A stretch of 13,620 nt of DNA from Chthoniobacteraceae bacterium (GTDB lineage Bacteria > Verrucomicrobiota > Verrucomicrobiia > Chthoniobacterales > Chthoniobacteraceae), in contig JANNXQ010000303.1 of the NCBI GenBank assembly GCA_031409655.1, positions 1 through 13,620 of the forward strand, written 5' to 3'. The translations under genes and the position numbers were made by a program. Positions 40 through 13,502 of this stretch are shown one piece after another; the stretch's first letter is position 1; each line of letters begins with the position of its first letter. The notes beneath the pieces are model-generated. The model saw nothing but the letters and a program-made list of their open reading frames with translations, made no database searches and was not told the DNA's origin.

Positions 40-101
40 CATGGAGCAGGGGCGCCCACCCCCCAAGTCACGACCCGGGGCGAGGGCGCCCCTACTCCTT
101 G
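40..101. repeat. Family A REPIN-like palindromic doublet, copy 1 (probably intergenic, upstream of folP)
   Basis: 25-bp inverted arms 40-64 and 77-101 (4 mismatches), 12-nt spacer AAGTCACGACCC; matches the copies at 6826, 10076 and 12163. Confidence 0.9.
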
Positions 102-3118: not shown

Positions 3119-3128
3119 GCGCCTACTT
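3113..3128. repeat. Perfect 16-bp palindrome AAGTAGGCGCCTACTT spanning the stop codons of two convergent genes
   Basis: Read directly: both genes end AAG TAG and are separated by GCGC. Confidence 0.85.
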
Positions 3129-6100
3129 GGGGGTCGCCGCGGGTCCGGCCAGGAGTTGCTTCACCGCGTTTGCCACCTCCGCTGCACCGTCGGGGCTGAA
3201 GCCGGTCTTCACCCAGGCGACGTTGCCGTCTGGCCCGACGATCACGGTATGCGGGATGCCCTCGACTCCGTATTGGCGCGCCACCTTTTGGCCGGCATCC
3301 AGGGCGACATTAAATTTCCACCCGCGCGCCTCGAGGAAGCGTTTCACCTGCTCCGCGGGCTCGCTCTGGTTCACGCCGAGCAGGGTCACGCGCTCCGGCG
3401 GAAAAGCCGACATCGTCTCGATCAGTGCGGGCAATGACTTGATACACGGCCCGCACCACGTCGCCCAAAAGTCGAGGACGACCACCTTCCCCTTCCACTG
3501 CGCGAGGTCGAAGTCGCCGCCGCCGAGCAACGGCAGAATGAAAGTCTTCGCCACCTTGCCGAGCGCGGGGGAGCTTTCGCCGCCGGATTCCGGCAGCACC
3601 GGTTCCGGGGCATCGACGAGCCGCCAGTCGGCAAGCGACTTCATCGTCGGGGTGGCTTCGGGCGGAGTGGTGCGGATGGTGTGGATCTGGTCCAGCGGAA
3701 TCCGGCAGCGTCCGAACGCAGGATGACTTCCGATGACTGCGTCCGGCGCAAACTTTTCCACCGCCAGACCGAGCCGCGCGCCGCTCGTGAGCAGGAGCCA
3801 GTGGGTCGGCGAACCGAGCACGCCGCCAAACTCCGCCGCGAGCACGGCGGCGAGTTTCTCGTGATTGGCCGGTGAATTCGTCACCGTGAGATGGCCGGTC
3901 TTTGGCTGCCAAATCACTTTGGATTCATTCGAGAAGAGGACGCCTCGGCTGGCGAGGGTCGCCTGCGCCGAGGCCTCGAAAGGAAACGCGGACGGCCGCA
4001 GCCAATACATCTTCTCCCGCAATTCCGGCGCTGCCGACGCTGCCCCTTCGAGCACTTCGAGGATGATGGTGTCGTTTTCCACGCGGTGGCGCAGTCCGAA
4101 TTGACCGCAGATTTGATCGAGCGCTTCCGCCACCGTCTGTCCCCCAAACTGCATCGTGATTCGGACGGAACCAATCGGATCGGGCAGTCTGAACTTCAGG
4201 CCGCTGACCTCCCTCTGCAGCACGCCGGTCAGCGTGCCCAGACTCGCCCCGCTGTAGCGGATGTTTCGCGTGAGCCTCTGCTCGAGCAGTTTGAGGGCGG
4301 TATTCTGAGTCGCAGGCGGCGGCGCGTCCTTGTCGGGCTTCTTCAGCCAGATCGCCGCCTGCACGCGGTCACGCGGAACGCGGAGATTTTCCAGTCCGGA
4401 ACGGAAGCCAAAGTGGCTCGCCGTGGCCGCTTCGATCTCGCCGCGCAGGACGTCGCCATTCGTCGCGAGCAGGGCATGCCGTGGCGGATCGTCTTTGCGG
4501 AAACGCGGGATGGTCAGGGCCTGGAGCTTCGCATCCACACTCACCTCCGGCAGCCAGGCACGACCGGGATTGGAGGTTGCGGAAAAATCCTTCAGGGTCA
4601 CCGCCCGGACGGTATTACCCCAGGCGCTCGCCGGTTCGATGACGAGCCCCGCACCCGCACGTTTAGTAGGACTGATGGCAATTTTACGCGCCAGCACGTC
4701 GTTGAAAAACAGCTCCACCTGTTTGTCTGAAATGCTCAGGCGGACGGCGACGGACTGGCCTTGGTCGATGGTCATCTGTTGCTCGTGGTCGAGTAGGCCA
4801 TCCGTCGATTCGATGCCCGAATAGAGGCGGCCGCCCATATTTCCCATGACCAGATTGGTCGATTGGGCGCTCTCCGTCCCCGCGCAGAACAAGCGCAGTC
4901 GGATCACTGCGAAGCTCGCCGCATTGAATGAGAACTTGATCTCGCTGCTCTGCAATACCGAGGGATGCCCGATGGCCGTGCCCGCATCCATGCTCAGCGA
5001 GTCTTCCTTTTTGCGAACGCCCGGCTCGGTGCCTTTCACAATCCGCCAGCCGGCATCGCCAAAACCACGCAAGTTCCGCCCGCCGCCGCCTCCAAATTGA
5101 ATCGCGTCGAGGGTCTCGACCGGCAGCTTCGTCACCTCGACGACCCCTGAATCAATCTCCACGCCAGTGCGGTCGAGGCTGCGCAGGATCCCCGGGAGGA
5201 CATCGCCGCTCTGCATGTAAAAAAGCGCGAGAGCCCCGAGCGGTTCGGCGATCGGAAGAGGGGCGCGCCGGATTTCACTCTCCAGCCCCTTTGCCGGGAG
5301 TGCCGGTCTCACCCCGCCCACGGGCAGCCAGCGCAGCCTCGCATCACCGGTGCTCGCGAGCTTTCCGTGGAGCGTCAGCTTGGGCAGGACGAGCGTGTCC
5401 CATTCGGTCAGCGGCGGCTCGGGCGCGACGGCGTCGGACTTTTTCGTCTGCCGGAGGAGCTGACGCAGCCCCGCCATCTGCGAGCCGAGTAGCTCCGCCG
5501 AAAATCCAGTGCGCAGCGCGACCCGACCATCCTTGATCGCGACCATGCCCCCGTGCAGCAGCGTGCCGTCGCCAAAAACGAGGGTCGTATCGACTTCCAC
5601 CTTTTGAGGCAGGTCCGCGGAAAAGACCAATGCGTCCACTTCACTCAACGGATGGCTCACTCCAGAATCCTGGCCCGCGGTCTTGAGCGAGATCGCGCCG
5701 TCCGCGCCCGCGCCGATCTGGCCCTCGACTGTCCGGCCATCGGAAAACTCCACCCGCGGAAACTTTCCGGAAGTCTTCGCCGGAGCCTTGCCGTCCCATT
5801 TCCGCACCCGCAGAAATTCCAGAGAGAGGTCGCGCCCTTTGTTTTGCAGCACCACTTGTTGGTTCGCGTTGCTCGCATCCGGCGGCACTTCCCACTCGAC
5901 CATCGGCTCTCCCGTTACCGTGAAGACGGAGCATTTCTGCGCCTTCCGATCCCAGCAGATGCGCAAGGCCACTTCGCGATCGCTATCGACCAGCGTGCGG
6001 ATGCTCTTGAAGCTGCGGCCCGCCGTGACCACCAGTTCATCGTCCCATGTTTCGACCCGCAGGCGATGCTTCCCGCCAGCCCCGAGCGAAAGTTGGAAGT

Positions 6101-6932
6101 CCGGCCGTTTGGTGGACCGCACGCGAAACTCCACATCCACCAACTCCGGCAGCACCACGTCGAGCGCGGCGCCGCGATTCCAGTAGGGCAACTCCAGCGC
6201 CCCGGCGGCCCCGGTGCGGAGGAGGGGAACTTGCGACGCCAGCGCGGTGACGTTTTTCGTGGTGTCGGCCACGATCCGCCAGCGCGATTCCCCCGCCGGG
6301 CCCGCTGCGATCAGGCTTCCACCCGTGAGCCGGCGCGCACTGAGCACCTCGGAACGCTTCAGCGCGACCTCGCCGTGCCGGGCACTGCGGACCGTGATCG
6401 TCGCCTCCGACACCGCCACGACGTTGCCGAAAAGATGACTCCCATCGCGCAGCGCAAAGCTAAAGGGCTCGCTGCTCGTCGCCGGCTCCAGCACCCGATC
6501 GATCCGGCGCAGCGCCGACCACTGCAAGACCAGCGGCTCATCAAAGAACGGAGATCGCCAGGTGAGTTCGGTCGCGCTCGCCTCGACGGGCTCACCAGCG
6601 AGGGATTCGCCGTTGTTCCAGCGGAGCGTGGCACCATCCGACGCGGGCGTGGCTTTGATCAATGCGGCCGTGGCCGGACTGAGATTGATGACCCGGATCC
6701 GCCGGCCGTCGGCTGCTTTGCGGAGTTGGAGGAGGAGTTCGTCTTCCGCACCGGTCCCGGTCGCGGAAAGTGCGACGAGGAGCAGCCAGACGAACAGTGC
6801 GAAACGTGCGGCGGCGGGCCGGACCCAAGGAGCAGGGGCGCCCCCGCCCCGTGGAGATACTCGGGGCGAAGGCGCCCCTGCTCCTTGACCTCGTCGCGCA
6901 CGGTCAGTTTGCAAATACGCCCTGTCCTTCAT
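3123..6932 (-). CDS. Large exported multidomain protein (1269 aa) with C-terminal TlpA/ResA-like thioredoxin domain
   Basis: C-terminal KGKVVVLDFWATWCGPC...YGVEGIPHTVIVGPDG (WCGPC at 3444-3458). N-terminal hydrophobic signal-like stretch FALFVWLLLVALSA. Start ATG 6932 overlaps the upstream TGA (ATGA, 6929-6932); the ORF-track extension to 7076 overlaps the upstream gene. Confidence 0.85.
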   Translation of the reverse strand: MKDRAYLQTDRARRGQGAGAPSPRVSPRGGGAPAPWVRPAAARFALFVWLLLVALSATGTGAEDELLLQLRKAADGRRIRVINLSPATAALIKATPASDGATLRWNNGESLAGEPVEASATELTWRSPFFDEPLVLQWSALRRIDRVLEPATSSEPFSFALRDGSHLFGNVVAVSEATITVRSARHGEVALKRSEVLSARRLTGGSLIAAGPAGESRWRIVADTTKNVTALASQVPLLRTGAAGALELPYWNRGAALDVVLPELVDVEFRVRSTKRPDFQLSLGAGGKHRLRVETWDDELVVTAGRSFKSIRTLVDSDREVALRICWDRKAQKCSVFTVTGEPMVEWEVPPDASNANQQVVLQNKGRDLSLEFLRVRKWDGKAPAKTSGKFPRVEFSDGRTVEGQIGAGADGAISLKTAGQDSGVSHPLSEVDALVFSADLPQKVEVDTTLVFGDGTLLHGGMVAIKDGRVALRTGFSAELLGSQMAGLRQLLRQTKKSDAVAPEPPLTEWDTLVLPKLTLHGKLASTGDARLRWLPVGGVRPALPAKGLESEIRRAPLPIAEPLGALALFYMQSGDVLPGILRSLDRTGVEIDSGVVEVTKLPVETLDAIQFGGGGGRNLRGFGDAGWRIVKGTEPGVRKKEDSLSMDAGTAIGHPSVLQSSEIKFSFNAASFAVIRLRLFCAGTESAQSTNLVMGNMGGRLYSGIESTDGLLDHEQQMTIDQGQSVAVRLSISDKQVELFFNDVLARKIAISPTKRAGAGLVIEPASAWGNTVRAVTLKDFSATSNPGRAWLPEVSVDAKLQALTIPRFRKDDPPRHALLATNGDVLRGEIEAATASHFGFRSGLENLRVPRDRVQAAIWLKKPDKDAPPPATQNTALKLLEQRLTRNIRYSGASLGTLTGVLQREVSGLKFRLPDPIGSVRITMQFGGQTVAEALDQICGQFGLRHRVENDTIILEVLEGAASAAPELREKMYWLRPSAFPFEASAQATLASRGVLFSNESKVIWQPKTGHLTVTNSPANHEKLAAVLAAEFGGVLGSPTHWLLLTSGARLGLAVEKFAPDAVIGSHPAFGRCRIPLDQIHTIRTTPPEATPTMKSLADWRLVDAPEPVLPESGGESSPALGKVAKTFILPLLGGGDFDLAQWKGKVVVLDFWATWCGPCIKSLPALIETMSAFPPERVTLLGVNQSEPAEQVKRFLEARGWKFNVALDAGQKVARQYGVEGIPHTVIVGPDGNVAWVKTGFSPDGAAEVANAVKQLLAGPAATPK
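6826..6887. repeat. Family A REPIN-like palindromic doublet, copy 2 (in frame in N-terminus of the TlpA-domain gene)
   Basis: Arms 6826-6850 and 6863-6887 (2 mismatches), spacer GTGGAGATACTC; translates as QGAGAPSPRVSPRGGGAPAPW. Confidence 0.95.
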
Positions 6933-8068
6933 CGTTCGTAGATCGGCAGAAACCGATAGTTCAGCGCCAGCGCGAGGAGCGACATGCCCGTGCCATACGC
7001 GCCCTGGCCGATCGCGCCATCCTCGCCTTGCAGTTCGTGCAGTTCCCGCACCTTGGCTCCGTTCCACTTTTGCCACGCCGCGTAGTCGCCTTGAAAGAGT
7101 GCCTGCGCCATGTAGTAGCGATTGTATTCCGGGTAACTCGTTTCGCGCTGTTCGAGTCCTTCCACGATCCGCTTGAGGCTGGCCTTGTATTGCTCCGTTT
7201 CCTTGGTCTTGGAAATCGCCCCGACCAGCGCCGAGATCGCCGAGAGATTCATCGAGCCGCCCATGCCCCCCAGCCCGCCGGAGTACGCCACCGAACCATC
7301 CTTACCCGTGCTCCGGCGCATGTATTCCATGGCGGCGTCCACCATCTCGTCCGCCACCTCCAGACCAGCATTCCGCGCCGCGAGCAGACCCATCAGCACC
7401 GCTCCCGTGACGGACGTATCGGCATCCGTCGCATCGGGCGAGTAGCGCCAGCCGCCCCACTTGTTCTTCTTCTGCGCAGTGGCCGCACAGCGGATCGCCA
7501 GCTCCAGCGTCGCGCCGATGCTCCGAACCGCCTTCTCGCCCTCCCAGAGCAGCACCTCATCGACCGAGCCATACGCTTCGCACAGCGCGAGCAGCGCAAA
7601 GCCGTGGTGATACATGCTGTCCGGCAGATAGCCGGTCTTCTCATCCTGCCGGCGGATGATCGAGCGGATCGCCCGGCGGATCGTCGCCGCATGGCGCCCG
7701 TAGTTCGGATCGTCGCCGCTTGCGAGGAAGGCCATGAGACAAATGCCATCGACGCCCGCGCCTTCGTTACTCCCCTTCCACGAGCCTTCCTCGGATTGCG
7801 CCCCGGCCAGCCAGGTGAGCCCACGTTCATAGACGGTCTCCACCTCCGGCGGAATCTGTCCGCCAAAGCGGAGGGTGGAATCCTGCGCCAGTGCAGTCGC
7901 GGCAAAGAGAAGGAGGAGCGCGCAGATCATCCCTGGGAGCGCCTCCGTCCCCGTGCGGCCTCGGGCCCATCGCGCAGCGCAAATCACTCCGGGGCACGAT
8001 CGAAGTTTGCGCTGCGCGCATCGGAAGATTGCCGCACGGGGACGGCGGCGCTCCCACGTCGCGCTCAT
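6929..8068 (-). CDS. Exported prenyltransferase/squalene-oxidase (QW) repeat protein (379 aa from 8068; alternative start 7930 gives 333 aa)
   Basis: QW-type motifs WLAGAQSEEGSW, IIRRQDEKTG, GGWRY..DADTSVT, LQGEDG; also SMYHHGFALLALCEAYG. Signal-like ICALLLLFAATALAQ. ATG 8068 overlaps the upstream TGA and is preceded by GAAGGAGAAAAAGGA (SD-like). Confidence 0.85.
   Translation of the reverse strand: MSATWERRRPRAAIFRCAQRKLRSCPGVICAARWARGRTGTEALPGMICALLLLFAATALAQDSTLRFGGQIPPEVETVYERGLTWLAGAQSEEGSWKGSNEGAGVDGICLMAFLASGDDPNYGRHAATIRRAIRSIIRRQDEKTGYLPDSMYHHGFALLALCEAYGSVDEVLLWEGEKAVRSIGATLELAIRCAATAQKKNKWGGWRYSPDATDADTSVTGAVLMGLLAARNAGLEVADEMVDAAMEYMRRSTGKDGSVAYSGGLGGMGGSMNLSAISALVGAISKTKETEQYKASLKRIVEGLEQRETSYPEYNRYYMAQALFQGDYAAWQKWNGAKVRELHELQGEDGAIGQGAYGTGMSLLALALNYRFLPIYER
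7934..8056. repeat. Family B 123-bp nested palindrome (REPIN-like), in N-terminus of the QW-repeat gene
   Basis: Outer arms 7934-7959 TGGGAGCGCCTCCGTCCCCGTGCGGC and 8031-8056 (1 mismatch in 26). Perfect 13-bp inner arms 7971-7983 CGCGCAGCGCAAA and 8006-8018. Single copy in the window. Confidence 0.85.
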
Positions 8069-10149
8069 TCCTTTTTCTCCTTCACCCGACTGGTGTGCAG
8101 GCGCTGCACGTTCTCCCAGTAGTTGGTGGTGTTGCCGAATTCCACGCCGCCAGTCCAAAGCTCCCATTGCTCTTTCGTTAAAATCCCCTTCAGCTCTTTC
8201 TCCGGCACGGCCATGACGGGGAGAAACATACTGTAGCTCTGGAGATACCAGATGTTGCTGTAAGAAGAGGAGAACATCGACCCGATGTCCGGCCCATAGT
8301 CCTTCACCATCTTCGCGATCTGCGGCTCGAGTTTGCTCCCTTGCTCTGTCGTCAGCGCAATGCGGCGGTCCAACTCCGCCATGATGAGATTCGCGATGAC
8401 CTCGTCGCGCCAGGCACCGCGCGCATCGATCTCCTTCTTCCAGGCCGCCCGCTGCGCCTCGGTGAGTTCGGCGTTCACGGTCGCCTCCCACAGCATTCCA
8501 AGATCGGCGTCACCACTGCTCCGCCGCCCGGAGCTGTAGCGGTCAAGACTGATCAGCCGTTGCTGCACATTCTCCGGCGTCACGTCGCGCAACTGAGAGC
8601 GAATGGTTTGATCCGTATTCGCCTTCCAGACCGCCAGTTCGCCTTCCGCCACGCCGCGCGCGGCGATCGCAAGCTGACGAGTCGCTTGCGCCGAAAGGCC
8701 CGCCACGCGCGCGGCGTCTTCCGCTTTGACGAGATGGACCGCGAGCAGCCGCTTCCTTTCAGTGGCCGCCTTTTCGTGGAAATGATCCGAGATCGCGTTC
8801 TCCACATCCTCGGGCTCGCCGGGTTGCGGCGGTGGAGCCGTCTTCGTCGCTGGCGTGAGCGCGCGGGCGACCACCAGTCCGACCCGTGGCGCGGCGCTTT
8901 TTGCGTTGCACACTTCCTGCCAGCGCTGGCGCTGCGTCTCGTCGAGGATCGCTTTCAATTCTTCCTCCTTCACCGTGCGCCCGCAGACGAAGAGCTTCCC
9001 TAAATTGATCCGGTAATAAGGCTGTCCGATTTCGCCCGGGAGCACCGAGGGATCGGCTCGGACTTCGCGCTCGACCAACGGCCGCAAGCGCTCGCGCTGG
9101 TCCTCGGTGAAGGCGACCTGTTCGTCGAGTTGCGCGATCAAAACGCCCGCCAGCGCCTTGCTCTGCCGCTCCCGATATTCCTCCTGCATTCCCCGCAGGC
9201 GGCTCGCTTCTTTCGCCGACAAGAACTTCGCCACACCCTCCTCCCAGGCCGCTTTCTGGACCGCGATGTCGGACTCTTCCATGGGAACATGCAGCCCGGA
9301 ACGCACCACTTCCTCCCGCTGCTCCTGCTCCATGGCGAGGACGTTTCGCTCGGCGCGTTTTCGGACGTTTCCGAGGGCTGTCTCCACCGCGGCTTTGGCA
9401 ATGGCGTCGAGTGTCGCAGCACGGTCCTTCGAGAGCGCCAGCGCCGTCTTCGTCGATTCCACTTTCGACAGCAGCCCCTGCTCTTGCCCCACGCGCGTCT
9501 GCTCGATGGCTTTTCGGAGCACGTCCGCAGTCTCGCGCAGGACGGCCTCCTTTTTTTCCCCGCTCGCCTTTTCCCAGACGTTCGCTTGTTCGGGAGAAAG
9601 GACGCCTTTGAGTCCTTCAGCCCATTTCGGGTCTTCAAACGGGCGAAAATACCCTCCGAAAAAATCCGCAAACTGCGGCTGATCCATTTGCGATAAAATC
9701 TGATCCACGACTTCCGGTTGATCCACGTACGGACTTAGGGCATCCCTCATCCAACTCGAAAACTTCGGCGCCCAGACCTGCACGGAGGACTCGATCAGCG
9801 GATCGACGAATAGCCGCAGCCGCGCTTGTGCATCGGCTCCGAGGTCGGTGGTTTTCGCCACCAGGTCGATCTCCCGCTGCATTCGCTCCGCCCATTGTTT
9901 GCGTTTCGTCTCGTTGGCCTTCCCCAGAAACTCCGTGAGCTTCGCCTCCACCTCTGGCCCCAGATTGGGTTGCCGTTTGGCGTCAGCTTTGGTCTCCGCA
10001 CCGGTGAGCACGCTCAGCCCAATCACGAGCGATAGTACCGCGCTCAGCAAGAAGAAGTGGTCGCCGCTGTGCATCCAAGGAGCCGGGGCGCCCTCGCCCC
10101 GTGGATCAAACTCGCGGCGAGGGCGCCCCTTCTCCTTGAGCCCGTTCAT
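8065..10149 (-). CDS. Exported alpha-helical repeat protein with recurring L(T/S)xxQ motifs (694 aa), hypothetical
   Basis: Open frame with hydrophobic FFLLSAVLSLVIGLSVL near the N-terminus and repeated ..LSPEQ..W / LDETQ..RW / LTEAQ..AW / LTKEQ..LW units. ATG 10149 overlaps the upstream TGA (10146-10149); alternative ATG at 10074. Confidence 0.8.
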   Translation of the reverse strand: MNGLKEKGRPRREFDPRGEGAPAPWMHSGDHFFLLSAVLSLVIGLSVLTGAETKADAKRQPNLGPEVEAKLTEFLGKANETKRKQWAERMQREIDLVAKTTDLGADAQARLRLFVDPLIESSVQVWAPKFSSWMRDALSPYVDQPEVVDQILSQMDQPQFADFFGGYFRPFEDPKWAEGLKGVLSPEQANVWEKASGEKKEAVLRETADVLRKAIEQTRVGQEQGLLSKVESTKTALALSKDRAATLDAIAKAAVETALGNVRKRAERNVLAMEQEQREEVVRSGLHVPMEESDIAVQKAAWEEGVAKFLSAKEASRLRGMQEEYRERQSKALAGVLIAQLDEQVAFTEDQRERLRPLVEREVRADPSVLPGEIGQPYYRINLGKLFVCGRTVKEEELKAILDETQRQRWQEVCNAKSAAPRVGLVVARALTPATKTAPPPQPGEPEDVENAISDHFHEKAATERKRLLAVHLVKAEDAARVAGLSAQATRQLAIAARGVAEGELAVWKANTDQTIRSQLRDVTPENVQQRLISLDRYSSGRRSSGDADLGMLWEATVNAELTEAQRAAWKKEIDARGAWRDEVIANLIMAELDRRIALTTEQGSKLEPQIAKMVKDYGPDIGSMFSSSYSNIWYLQSYSMFLPVMAVPEKELKGILTKEQWELWTGGVEFGNTTNYWENVQRLHTSRVKEKKE
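10076..10138. repeat. Family A REPIN-like palindromic doublet, copy 3 (in frame in N-terminus of the LTxxQ-repeat gene)
   Basis: Arms 10076-10100 and 10114-10138 (3 mismatches), 13-nt spacer GTGGATCAAACTC; translates as KEKGRPRREFDPRGEGAPAPW. Confidence 0.95.
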
Positions 10150-13100
10150 TTCCGAGCCGCCTGGTTTTCGAGCAGGCTGAAGTACGCGTCGAGGCCGGGC
10201 TTGAATTCCGCCGGGAATTCTTTGCCCGCGCGCCCCGTCGCCTGACCGATGGCCCGCGCGGCGACGCTGCTCTCCGCGTCGGAGCCGGGGCCGAGATCGG
10301 CGAGCGCGGCGGAGGACGCCGTGGCCGCGCGGCCACCACCGCCGGGATTCGATCCGCCACCGCCGCCGCCTTTCGGGCTCATGCGTTTGGCTTGGAGCAG
10401 GAGTTCGATCGCTTCGGTCTCGGCGGCGATCGCGGTCGGGCCGGTTTCCGGCGTGACGAGGATACCTTGCGCTTCGTCCATCACCGTCACGACGGCTGAA
10501 AGCAGCGCCAGTTCCTTGGGAAATTTCGCCGCACCCTCCGGCAGCGCGCGGATGTCGCTGATCGCACTCGCGGTGTGTTGCGCGATGCTCGTCTGCTTTT
10601 CGCCAAGCACTTTTGCATCGGTGGAAAACTTCGCCTCTTCCAAGGCGGCCCGTGCATTTTCCATCTCGCGGGTTTCGTCGCGCAGCTTCATCTCGTCGCG
10701 CAGGGCTTGCATGACCTTGAGCACGATCTCCGGCGGCAGGCTGTCGCCGCTGCAACTCGAGCAGGATTTGCAATTGCTCGCCGCGACCATTTCCTCCGAC
10801 CAGCGATCCAGCGTGTCCGCCCAATACTCGGAACCCACGAGTCCCTGCCCGGTGAGATTGATCGCCACCTTCTCGCCGCCGCGGGCCAGCGCGCGGACGA
10901 CTTCGGTCTTCTTCATCTGATCGAGGATGTTCTTAAAATGGCTGTCCTGCTTGCGCTGGAAGTAGGCCTCGAGGTCGCTCTGGATCACGCGCACGACATC
11001 GCTCTGCGATTTCGCGTGTTTGGCGATCGGCTCCACGGCTTTCACGGGCTCGCGCTCAATGCCGAAGGCGTCGAGCGTCTTCTGATTGATGTCCGAGGCG
11101 ATGGCCATCTGCTGCCGCGACGCTGCTTTGAAGCGCTTCACGAAGGTGCTCGCTTCGAGACTCGCGAGGATTTCGCCGAGCTGATCGGAGACCTTGGCAA
11201 ACTCGGCGAGCAAATCCTTCTGCTCGGTAATCGCGGAATCGAGTTTCTCCTGCGCGGGCGACTCCGGTGGTTTCGGGGCTTCGTCGTCTTTCTTCGCGGG
11301 CGCGGCGGCGAGAGTGGTCTGGGGCAGGCCGAGTTTGCTGGCACCCGGCGGTTTTGGCGGGGCGTTTGGATCGGTCGGTTTGGGTTCGGGCGGTTTGCTG
11401 AAGCCGGCTTCGCGATCCGCGATGCTCGGCGCGGCGGGTTTTGGCAGAGCGTTGGGATCGATAGCCTGCGGAGTGGCTGGGGCCGAGGGAAGTGGCGCGC
11501 CTTGGGCGACGCTTGGCGCACTCTTCGCATCCTTCGCTTCGGAAGGTTGCCCAGGCTTGGCCTCCGACTGCTGCGGAGGCGCGGCGCCGGGCTTTCCGCT
11601 GGAAGGTTTCCCCGCAGTGGCGCTCGCGGTTTGTTTGAGCAGATCGGAGACACTCGGCATCCGGTTCGCGGCGATGTCCTTCAGCGACTTCAGCATCGTC
11701 GCCCACGATTCGAGCCGGTTCGCATCGAACTCCGGATTCTTCGTCGCCTGCTCGACGAGGCTGCGGCCGGAATTCGTCAGGCTATCGACGCGCGCGGCAT
11801 TCGCGTTTTCGGCGGAAGCCTGTTGCGAGACTTTGCGGCGATTCTCCGGGCGATCGAGTTCGGCGGCGTCGAGCGCGCGCAGTTCCTTGTTCGTCTGGTG
11901 GAGCTGTTGCTCGCGCTCGTAGCTTTCGCGGGCGACTTCGAGCCACTTGCCGAATTGCTCCGTGAGCCAGAGCGCGTGGTCGGTCTTGTCGAGCACATGG
12001 AGGATGAAGCTCGCCGACTTCGCGCGCTCCCGGCCCGGCAGATAGTCGTCGGTCCAGGCCCGCACTTCGAGGGTCTGCGGCGCCACCCCTTCGCGCGTCG
12101 CGCAGAAAGTCGCGCGTGCCCCCAGTTCCCGCTTCTCGGGTTCGCCCGCGGCAGCGATTTTCCAAGGAGCCGGGGCGCCCTCGCCCCGAGTTGCGTCACG
12201 GGGCGAGGGCGCCCCGCCTCCTTGAGCGCTCCATTCGAGCCCCACGCGCTGCACGCCGAAGTCATCGCTCGCGGCGAGGTCGAAGATGACGACTTCGGAG
12301 TCGAGCACGACTTGCTCGAGCGATTCGCGGCGCGCGATGATCCGCGGCGCCTCGTCGTCCAGCGCCCGCACTTTGAGCACGAGCGGATCGCGTGGGGTGA
12401 GGCCGTCCTGATCCTTCCAGGTGAACTTCCGTTCGCGGTCCGCGCTGACCGGCTCGTAACTCGTCACGATCTTCTCGCCATCGACTTTCTGCGCGAGGCC
12501 ATCGAGTTCTGCCGCCGCGAGCGCGCGGCTCGCCTTTGCTTCAAACGCGGCCTCCGCGCCCTTGAGCACGCTCACCGCACCGCCGCGCACGTCGAGGTGC
12601 TGCTCGGATTTGTATTGGAGGTAGGCCGGCAGGCGCAGCCGCACCGCGAGTTCCGTGAGCTCGGGACGCGGACGCGGCTGGAGCTGGATGGACTTCCGCA
12701 CATCGCCGAGCGCGAGCGCGAGCGCGGCGTCCTGCTTCTGCGGCGGAAAGGCGAGGGGATACGTGCCGGCGTCGAGTTTCGCGCGCACCGTCGGCTGCTG
12801 GCCGATCCGCGCGGTGCTTTGCTCCGGTGAGCGCCGGGTATCCGCCGCGAGCCGCACGGGCAGCTCGAAGGGCTCCGCATATGGCACCACCAGCCGGGCG
12901 GGCAGCGGCTCGACTTTGGCAAAGGTGTAACGCTCCACCGCGCGCCACGGCGTGCTCCAGCGGACGAAGGCATTGCGCGCCGCTTCATTCACCAAGGCAA
13001 ACGCCAGCACCGCCACGGCGCACGTTCCCGCCGCGGCCCAGCCCCACTGCCGATGCCGCGCTTCCGGCACGGCATGGGTGAAATCCTTGTCCTTCACCGC

Positions 13101-13502
13101 GTCGGCCGCCTGCGCCATCGCCGCCTCCACCAGCCGCTCGCTGCGCCCGGCCGCCGCGTGATCCATGCGCGAAAGCTCCACGATACCGAGGAGCTGATCG
13201 CCGAGCCGCGGGAAGGTCCGGCGCAAGAGCCGCGCTGCATCTTCCAGCCGCCGCTGCCGCCAGACCCACGCGTGCCACTTCAATGGCAGGCCGAGTCCGA
13301 GGACCGCCGCCCCGGCGACGAGCAGGCTCAGGCGCAGCCAGCCCGGTGTTTCAAAGAAACGATCGAGCGCGAAGACGAGCAGGTAAGAGAGCGCGATGCC
13401 GAAGAGGGCCGCGAGCAAGCCCTCCGCAAGTTTCACGACCCAGACGCGGCGGCGGAAATCGGCCAGCTTCGTTTCGAGGATCGGTGGGAGGTTCGTGTTC
13501 AT
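10146..13502 (-). CDS. Large membrane-anchored protein (1118 aa): ~3 N-terminal TM segments, beta-rich region, coiled-coil C-terminal half with Pro/Ala/Lys linker (DUF4175-like architecture)
   Basis: Hydrophobic stretches LLAALFGIALSYLLVFALD, LSLLVAGAAVLGLGL, AAAGTCAVAVLAFALV. Motifs P.LGDQLLGIVEL, PAYLQY, DDFGV and a C-terminal FPAEFKPGLDAYF. An in-frame stop lies shortly upstream of ATG 13502. Family assignment is from recall only. Confidence 0.8.
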   Translation of the reverse strand: MNTNLPPILETKLADFRRRVWVVKLAEGLLAALFGIALSYLLVFALDRFFETPGWLRLSLLVAGAAVLGLGLPLKWHAWVWRQRRLEDAARLLRRTFPRLGDQLLGIVELSRMDHAAAGRSERLVEAAMAQAADAVKDKDFTHAVPEARHRQWGWAAAGTCAVAVLAFALVNEAARNAFVRWSTPWRAVERYTFAKVEPLPARLVVPYAEPFELPVRLAADTRRSPEQSTARIGQQPTVRAKLDAGTYPLAFPPQKQDAALALALGDVRKSIQLQPRPRPELTELAVRLRLPAYLQYKSEQHLDVRGGAVSVLKGAEAAFEAKASRALAAAELDGLAQKVDGEKIVTSYEPVSADRERKFTWKDQDGLTPRDPLVLKVRALDDEAPRIIARRESLEQVVLDSEVVIFDLAASDDFGVQRVGLEWSAQGGGAPSPRDATRGEGAPAPWKIAAAGEPEKRELGARATFCATREGVAPQTLEVRAWTDDYLPGRERAKSASFILHVLDKTDHALWLTEQFGKWLEVARESYEREQQLHQTNKELRALDAAELDRPENRRKVSQQASAENANAARVDSLTNSGRSLVEQATKNPEFDANRLESWATMLKSLKDIAANRMPSVSDLLKQTASATAGKPSSGKPGAAPPQQSEAKPGQPSEAKDAKSAPSVAQGAPLPSAPATPQAIDPNALPKPAAPSIADREAGFSKPPEPKPTDPNAPPKPPGASKLGLPQTTLAAAPAKKDDEAPKPPESPAQEKLDSAITEQKDLLAEFAKVSDQLGEILASLEASTFVKRFKAASRQQMAIASDINQKTLDAFGIEREPVKAVEPIAKHAKSQSDVVRVIQSDLEAYFQRKQDSHFKNILDQMKKTEVVRALARGGEKVAINLTGQGLVGSEYWADTLDRWSEEMVAASNCKSCSSCSGDSLPPEIVLKVMQALRDEMKLRDETREMENARAALEEAKFSTDAKVLGEKQTSIAQHTASAISDIRALPEGAAKFPKELALLSAVVTVMDEAQGILVTPETGPTAIAAETEAIELLLQAKRMSPKGGGGGGSNPGGGGRAATASSAALADLGPGSDAESSVAARAIGQATGRAGKEFPAEFKPGLDAYFSLLENQAARK
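12163..12224. repeat. Family A REPIN-like palindromic doublet, copy 4 (in frame inside the 1118-aa gene)
   Basis: Arms 12163-12187 and 12200-12224 (1 mismatch), spacer GAGTTGCGTCAC; translates as QGGGAPSPRDATRGEGAPAPW. Confidence 0.95.

Follow-up and report, generated by a model that had tools for sequence, protein, structure and literature searches.

The locus and its palindromic elements

The subject of this work is a family of palindromic repeats in the genome of a Chthoniobacteraceae bacterium, studied from a stretch of 13,620 nucleotides (contig JANNXQ010000303.1, assembly GCA_031409655.1; hereafter the window). An earlier note on this DNA had described four such elements as doublets of inverted repetitive extragenic palindromic (REP) hairpins, that is, as REP doublets forming hairpins (REPINs), several of them translated in frame. 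We refer to the genome carrying the window as G000 and to its congener as G001; C-numbers denote contigs and L-numbers the loci compared. All four elements were found, at 40-101, 6826-6887, 10076-10138 and 12163-12224, and the arm pattern gave eight matches in the window and none in 200 shuffles. Folded as single-stranded DNA, the copy at 12163-12224 formed one long hairpin (-35.6 kcal/mol, z score -9.6). The arms of the element pair across approximately 26 nt around a 10-11 nt loop, and a single arm folds by itself into a 6-bp stem with a 4-nt loop, so the doublet anatomy described previously holds with arm and spacer sizes refined. As also described, three copies lie in open reading frames (ORFs) of the minus strand and encode the shared peptide RG(E/G)GAPAPW; however, only the copy at 12163-12224 is located in mid-gene, whereas those at 6826-6887 and 10076-10138 fall within the first 36 codons of their ORFs. 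The features of the window are the following.

40..101 (no strand): intergenic REPIN copy, separated by 27 nt from the start codon of folP downstream (ATG at 129); orthologues begin at the matching codon
3123..6932 (minus strand): host gene of 1269 aa whose product carries an AhpC/TSA redoxin domain at its C-terminus
6826..6887 (minus strand): REPIN copy, in frame, codons 16-36 of the 3123-6932 gene, preceding the hydrophobic stretch of a likely signal peptide
7934..8056 (no strand): doublet of a second, unrelated inverted-repeat family, its 26-nt arms spaced by 71 nt, where two genes meet
8065..10149 (minus strand): host gene, 694 aa, no family assigned
10076..10138 (minus strand): REPIN copy, in frame, codons 5-25 of the 8065-10149 gene, with an alternative ATG directly after it
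10146..13502 (minus strand): host gene encoding 1118 aa, assigned to no family in Pfam or NCBIfam, conserved in the bacterial family
12163..12224 (minus strand): in-frame REPIN copy forming codons 427-447 of the 1118-aa gene, where it takes the place of about 14 loop codons between two predicted beta-strands

The stretch 3123-13502 comprises four co-directional genes with ATGA overlaps, an operon conserved in several genera, whose products are the 1118-aa protein (predicted to be Ig-like), the 694-aa protein, a conserved protein of about 330 aa and the redoxin-domain protein. Three of these four genes belong to no Pfam or NCBIfam family.

The element is abundant and mostly extragenic

For a genome-wide census we built a weight matrix from the eight window arms and used the reversed sequence as a control. 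Above 14 bits, 215 arms were detected in G000 versus 14 in the control, and above 28 bits 175 versus 0. Pairing was observed for 180 of the 215 arms, resulting in 90 doublets, 71 of which are 62-63 nt long; many of the 35 unpaired matches are weak or cut by contig ends. The high copy number that had been suspected from the window was thus borne out, and the repeat is not confined to this locus. Of 151 genomes of the family, 19 carry the arm, and these represent 9 of 29 genera; a search of 16 genomes belonging to other families in the order did not detect it. Phage contigs contained no match to the complete exact doublet pattern, and seven sources gave no Rfam match.

When the doublets were placed relative to 5,528 genes predicted with a purpose-built dicodon gene caller (90% coverage), 60 were intergenic (30 with co-directional neighbours, 22 with convergent and 1 with divergent ones, and 7 at contig edges), 18 lay at gene ends and 12 were in mid-gene and in frame. 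Those at gene ends supply the stop codon (7), lie inside the C-terminus (4) or N-terminus (2), or overlap the called start (5). Coding copies are strongly depleted, since mid-gene DNA makes up 66% of the genome but harbors only 12 of the 90 doublets (13%). The mid-gene copies use all three reading frames, and their length is divisible by three in 7 of 12 cases versus 20 of 78 for the others (Fisher p 0.038). Their hosts, most of which have recognisable family domains, include an RND transporter, PabB, GlpD, XdhAB, two PVC haem proteins, an acyltransferase and an FtsX-type permease. The in-frame 62-base repeats likely add a 21-residue loop, in about one copy in eight.

In G000, in-frame copies also occur in several further repeat families. 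The family of the 7934-8056 doublet has 39 arms at two or fewer mismatches versus 0 in the control and occupies about 109 loci by 16-mers, five of them in mid-gene, and its window copy is readable in frame. Short tandem-unit repeat families (7-nt-like units) are also abundant in G000, for example at C53:24540-24630 and C127:17380-17475; some lie in frame and encode, for instance, the peptides TSNIEHR and SSFILHP.

The arms share a constant end, CAAGGAG, each position of which is 90-99% conserved across the 180 arms (in the window, for instance, at 6826-6832). We take this end to resemble a Shine-Dalgarno sequence, and near starts or inside genes it might affect translation. The tetranucleotide at the hairpin foot is GTAG in 45 of the 180 arms, GCAG in 60 and another variant in 75, and other genomes have AT or CC at the two variable positions after CAAGGAG. 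No compensatory pairing of the two variable bases was seen in the arms. GTAG was considered as the defining end of the family and rejected, being present in only 45 of 180 arms; the family does not conserve the GTAG or GTRG that most members of the GTAG-tagged REP superfamily carry at the hairpin foot.

A RAYT transposase is flanked by complete doublets

The earlier note had suggested looking for a REP-associated tyrosine transposase (RAYT) gene flanked by these arms, and one was found. Among 13 Y1_Tnp matches in G000, that at C187:31223-31867 lies directly between two doublets, which are complete and not single arms, and its stop codon falls within the downstream arm. The 214-aa product retains intact HUH and tyrosine motifs (NHVH, WQ and YIRRNP) and passes the model NF047646 for REP-associated tyrosine transposases with 83.1 bits (cut-off 80). 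Its closest relative among 80 GTDB loci (L134, 64% identity) carries an internal stop and is flanked by the same doublets, as are RAYTs of 60-64% identity in four of the five arm-rich genomes tested; in genome G153 the doublet was seen only upstream of the RAYT within the stretch examined. Given that doublets flank the RAYT in G000 and that this pairing recurs in five other genomes, we identify the 62-base element as a REPIN as defined by Bertels and Rainey in 2011 (PMC3116915): it is a dispersed short palindrome, mostly extragenic, with inverted doublets as its main unit and a RAYT flanked by the repeat. Judging from sequence, the roughly 90 copies of G000 are likely mobilised by the C187 RAYT.

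We compared this gene with others in a set of 110 RAYT loci (30 from a search of the family and 80 from GTDB). In a quick tree of 109 domains, from which one short row of the 110 had been dropped, it fell inside a 22-row clade of stand-alone genes (SH-aLRT, a Shimodaira-Hasegawa-like likelihood ratio test, 97), most of which are flanked by CAAGGAG-ended hairpins of differing sequence. G000 itself has a second stand-alone RAYT of this clade (C213:32822-33560, L109), with CAAGGAG-ended doublets of different hairpins and apparently low copy number. On either side of the whole C187 unit (C187:31130-31980, L007) stands a diverged direct repeat of about 35 nt; it matches the neighbouring gene at its 3' end and may be a relic of insertion.

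Could the RAYT link be incidental, and the element a conventional miniature inverted-repeat transposable element moved by a DDE transposase via its terminal inverted repeats? The arms do make inverted repeats of 25-26 nt, and 3-bp direct flank matches occur at 5 of the 90 copies versus 1.4 expected, in one of ten uncorrected tests. Yet a target-site duplication of 4-5 bp is found at 0 of 90 copies and longer flank matches equal those in shuffles, every arm is a hairpin of its own, and the doublets flank orthologous RAYTs in six genomes, which makes this origin extremely unlikely.

Translation through the in-frame copies

The mid-gene copy at 12163-12224 is shared with the congener G001, which carries the same insertion, and its host could therefore be followed in two species. 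The surrounding region of the 1118-aa protein is predicted to form two Ig-like beta-sandwiches. In an AlphaFold model of residues 276-510 (20 sequences; mean predicted local distance difference test score, pLDDT, 93), the insert is placed in the loop between strands 142-151 and 172-177, and the pLDDT of this block drops to 64. None of the 13 homologues of other genera that were aligned (9 of them 53-80% identical, 4 distant) has the element peptide, as the earlier note had expected. The loop of these homologues is 7 residues shorter than with the insert; the 21 element codons therefore replaced about 14. A metagenome contig of approximately 88% identity crosses the same site with 79 letters instead of 100.

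Between G000 and G001, the ratio of non-synonymous to synonymous substitution rates (dN/dS) of this gene is 0.06 for the 426 codons upstream of the element and 0.12 for the 669 codons downstream. Because purifying selection acts on both sides, the host stayed functional through the insertion and is no pseudogene, and translation through the element is therefore implied. The 21 element codons themselves show 0 synonymous and 3 non-synonymous changes. On these very small numbers the element peptide looks unconstrained and tolerated rather than useful, which speaks against the proposal that the repeat acts as a source of useful new peptide. A second insertion common to both species, on contig C214, has host dN/dS values of 0.12-0.15 on its flanks.

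For the two N-terminal copies the start codon matters. At 6826, the start codon of six of six orthologues overlaps the upstream stop as ATGA and leads, without the insert, straight into the hydrophobic leader, and the G000 gene has no other in-frame ATG, GTG or TTG before the hydrophobic stretch. If read from this start, the element would lengthen the front of the likely signal peptide and then be cleaved off. At 10076, four of five orthologues start at an ATGA or GTGA overlap, G001 being the exception; translation through this copy is uncertain because an ATG directly follows the element. One could hence argue that the host ORFs are dead or mis-called and that the peptides are never made. This would be plausible only for these two copies, given the alternative ATG at 10076 and the gene caller's choice of a start downstream of the 6826 element, which leaves that element outside the gene. 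As a general explanation we consider it very improbable, since the frames at 12163 and C214 are intact in two species with dN/dS of 0.06-0.15 on both sides and most mid-gene hosts have recognisable family domains.

The same data bear on whether the family, which the earlier note had called coding-tolerant, is specially adapted to coding by being stop-poor in all frames or gene-targeted and by supplying useful peptide loops. Five or six frames are stop-free in 59 of the 90 elements, the in-frame copies use all three frames, and the shared C214 element is unchanged at the protein level in G001. However, high GC content by itself makes stops rare, and many arms (49 of 180) are of a variant containing TAG, which gives a stop codon to seven genes. 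Mid-gene copies are strongly depleted (13% versus 66%), only 1 of 19 doublets examined in three other genera and genome G136 is in frame, the insert at 12163-12224 drifts non-synonymously, and other G000 repeat families are found in frame as well. Special adaptation to coding thus appears improbable.

Other insertion sites

Six of the other 11 mid-gene sites were compared with orthologues, with two of five RND loci aligning across the site, and none of these orthologues contained an intact copy of the element. The net gain was 54 nt for an element of 63 nt in XdhAB, 57 for 63 in a PVC haem protein, 51 for 64 in GlpD and 39-45 for 69 in the acyltransferase; because these gains are smaller than the element lengths, some target sequence is always missing at in-frame sites. 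The XdhAB insert falls within a gap of the alignment to solved XdhA. By comparison, two intergenic G001 copies set against empty G000 sites, in alignments of poor quality, gave gains of 66 and 71 nt, nearly those of a clean insertion.

At the RND-transporter site (L047 versus L116 and L117), G000 carries this element and both G001 and genome G002 carry another REP doublet, and a similar repeat swap was seen for L228 versus contig C56 of G000. The PabB loop has other repeats, or possibly a decayed copy, in its orthologues. The RND-transporter and PabB sites are permissive hotspots.

Proposed mode of spread

Taken together, these results make it probable, in our view strongly so, that the REPINs spread without targeting, driven by the RAYT, and that the in-frame copies are survivors that kept the frame in variable loops. 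The related TnpAREP cleaves on both sides of the REP, at CT or CA sites lying 5' and 3' to it, with the tetranucleotide at the hairpin foot as its guide (PMC8266576). By analogy with this biochemistry, the RAYT would bind the single-stranded arm hairpin, nick near the arm and then transfer the doublet to a new strand, and part of the constant CAAGGAG end may act as the guide instead of GTAG. Insertion would be untargeted, with frameshifting and protein-core insertions being purged, so that selection would retain only frame-preserving insertions in loops or at ends. The 6-41 nt of target missing from in-frame sites would have been lost during insertion or by later trimming, restoring the frame for 62- and 64-nt copies, and the Gly/Pro/Ala/Arg-rich peptide would be translated as a neutral loop or, in signal-peptide leaders, be cleaved off.

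Several observations weigh against RAYT-driven, untargeted spread. Genome G113 has 36 arms and no RAYT of the C187 clade was found in it; the fragmented assembly of G041 (31 arms) gave no RAYT match at E 1e-20, and that of G001 (23 arms) only matches of 41-46% identity. The C214 element shared with G001 differs by 1 synonymous and 0 non-synonymous changes, and the PabB loop of G001 has equal length and is partly like the element. No same-strain empty site appeared among the 15 joints listed of 63 in metagenome contigs from four DNA runs of one study. The empty-site orthologues, at 53-92% identity, are too distant to date the target loss, and the placement counts depend on the purpose-built gene caller.

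Whole RAYT cassettes inside housekeeping proteins

Inteins with homing endonucleases place a nuclease domain in frame at recurrent sites of essential single-copy proteins. The RAYT relatives show a comparable arrangement. Counting as an in-frame cassette any RAYT domain that has over 120 codons upstream and over 100 downstream of it in one frame, we identified 40 among the 110 loci, with HVH kept in 39 and the tyrosine in all 40. In addition, 856 proteins of at least 376 aa match RAYT among 3,231 candidates, and most of the 120 long ones listed carry host domains such as CarB, MqnA/D, LeuRS and HsdR. Pfam confirmed the host in 12 of 13 proteins scanned (LeuRS, ClpB, CarB, HsdR, MqnA/D, ValRS, PriA, SNF2, poly(A) polymerase, XseA, DnaE and AlaRS); methylases are further hosts. 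The in-frame cassettes were seen among loci L084-L103 and L145-L212 and proteins P0001-P0120. One CarB accommodates the cassette between residues 481 and 488 (E. coli numbering), each half being complete, and CarB is invaded at two sites. In G000, a whole RAYT domain stands in frame between REP-encoded linkers in the only alaS (C138:14165-16969, L012) and in a single-copy ORF of 1374 codons (C102:32776-36900, L009).

The cassette linkers are encoded by inverted REP arms, and the REP families differ between genomes at the same site. For five pairs sharing a site, dN/dS of the RAYT part is 0.03-0.16 (one pair saturated), and the synonymous rate dS is higher in the RAYT part than in both host flanks, a pattern that fits cassette exchange and could reflect codon bias. 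The cassettes resemble inteins in carrying an in-frame nuclease domain at recurrent sites of essential single-copy proteins and differ from them in their REP-encoded linkers and in an enzyme that is an HUH Y1 nuclease. No intein or Hint family was detected at E 1e-9 in the 13 cassette host proteins scanned with Pfam, and seven sources gave no Rfam intron.

Are the in-frame REPINs, then, footprints of whole arm-RAYT-arm cassettes, inserted in frame, from which the transposase gene has since disappeared? Whole cassettes are common among RAYT relatives (40 of 110 loci), the LeuRS cassette L093 has outward-facing CAAGGAG-ended arms, and one repeat family of G001 and G002 flanks a RAYT in ClpB and stands without one in the RND transporter. 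Against this, no member of the 22-row clade of the cognate RAYT (SH-aLRT 97) is fused on both sides, the cognate gene is flanked by complete doublets and not by single arms, and at 11 of 11 comparable cassette sites the G000 orthologues are without this element (HsdR, the twelfth site, gave no match). We therefore regard the footprint origin as unlikely. Since the fused RAYTs fall outside the clade of the C187 RAYT in the quick tree and no footprint occurs at the 11 sites, the link between REPINs and cassettes is one of kinship and not of direct descent. Whether a RAYT lineage invades proteins, with the REPIN as the small end of a range and cassettes of about 250 codons that stay unspliced and active and are swapped at fixed sites like inteins, is a proposal to which we give even weight for and against.

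RAYTs have been portrayed as domesticated single-copy genes whose benefit is unknown. In the main published classification, unexpectedly long RAYT proteins were discarded as fusions or annotation errors (PMC6006769). We found no description of RAYT cassettes in housekeeping proteins in the literature searched, mostly open papers, subscription papers and preprint supplements lying outside that search; looking up terms in PMC6006769, 10.1101/119735, 10.1101/2021.07.10.451892, PMC8266576 and PMC3184786 returned none within the text searched. JGI automatic protein names already label such RAYT fusions. Judging by named relatives of the C187 RAYT and of the fusion proteins, the genome probably belongs to Chthoniobacteraceae, Verrucomicrobiota.

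Relation to known repeats and implications

The family shares with REPIN-RAYT systems, or REPtrons, the dispersed inverted hairpin doublets that are mostly extragenic and flank a single-copy RAYT (PMC3116915, PMC6006769), and in length and motifs the C187 RAYT is closest, by eye and not by profile, to subclass 2.7 in Table 1 of PMC6006769. It differs in its end, CAAGGAG plus two variable bases instead of GT[AG]G, and genic copies are commoner in G000 (12 of 90 in mid-gene) than in Pseudomonas fluorescens SBW25, where 14 of 1,067 16-mers overlap genes (PMC3116915). The suggestion that in-frame REP doublets were undescribed did not hold, because they are already known in Verrucomicrobiota: the tables for Opitutus terrae, which has the most intragenic GTAG repeats, contain about 70 such entries, more than half of them dimers or groups encoding 20-30 residues, and REP ends there often give stop codons to flanking ORFs (Di Nocera 2013, PMC3733652). 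The GTAG-17/18/19 dimers of this species are likewise in frame in unrelated proteins (15-30 residues); going by the peptides listed in that paper, theirs differ from those of the G000 family. The latter and its CAAGGAG end motif appear to be new. Rickettsia palindromic elements (RPEs), as cited in PMC3733652 and PMC3184786, are also palindromic repeats in frame in unrelated proteins; they differ in phylum and apparently in sequence, and RPE-1 is longer. The CGTC-type repeats among them (RPE-4/6) have no linked transposase according to PMC3733652, whereas the G000 family has a RAYT.

A RAYT-REP pair with a constant end other than GTAG offers a natural way to test the guide-sequence model for REP cleavage, and filled and empty orthologues give dated in-frame insertions for studying how repeats add protein loops. 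The cassette observation matters more than the REPIN family itself. Intact cassettes in essential proteins across several phyla bear on how RAYT transposases persist: if the proposed invasion of proteins is true, being fused to an essential gene would offer an HUH transposase a means of escaping loss, and it would tether a single-stranded DNA nuclease to core enzymes.

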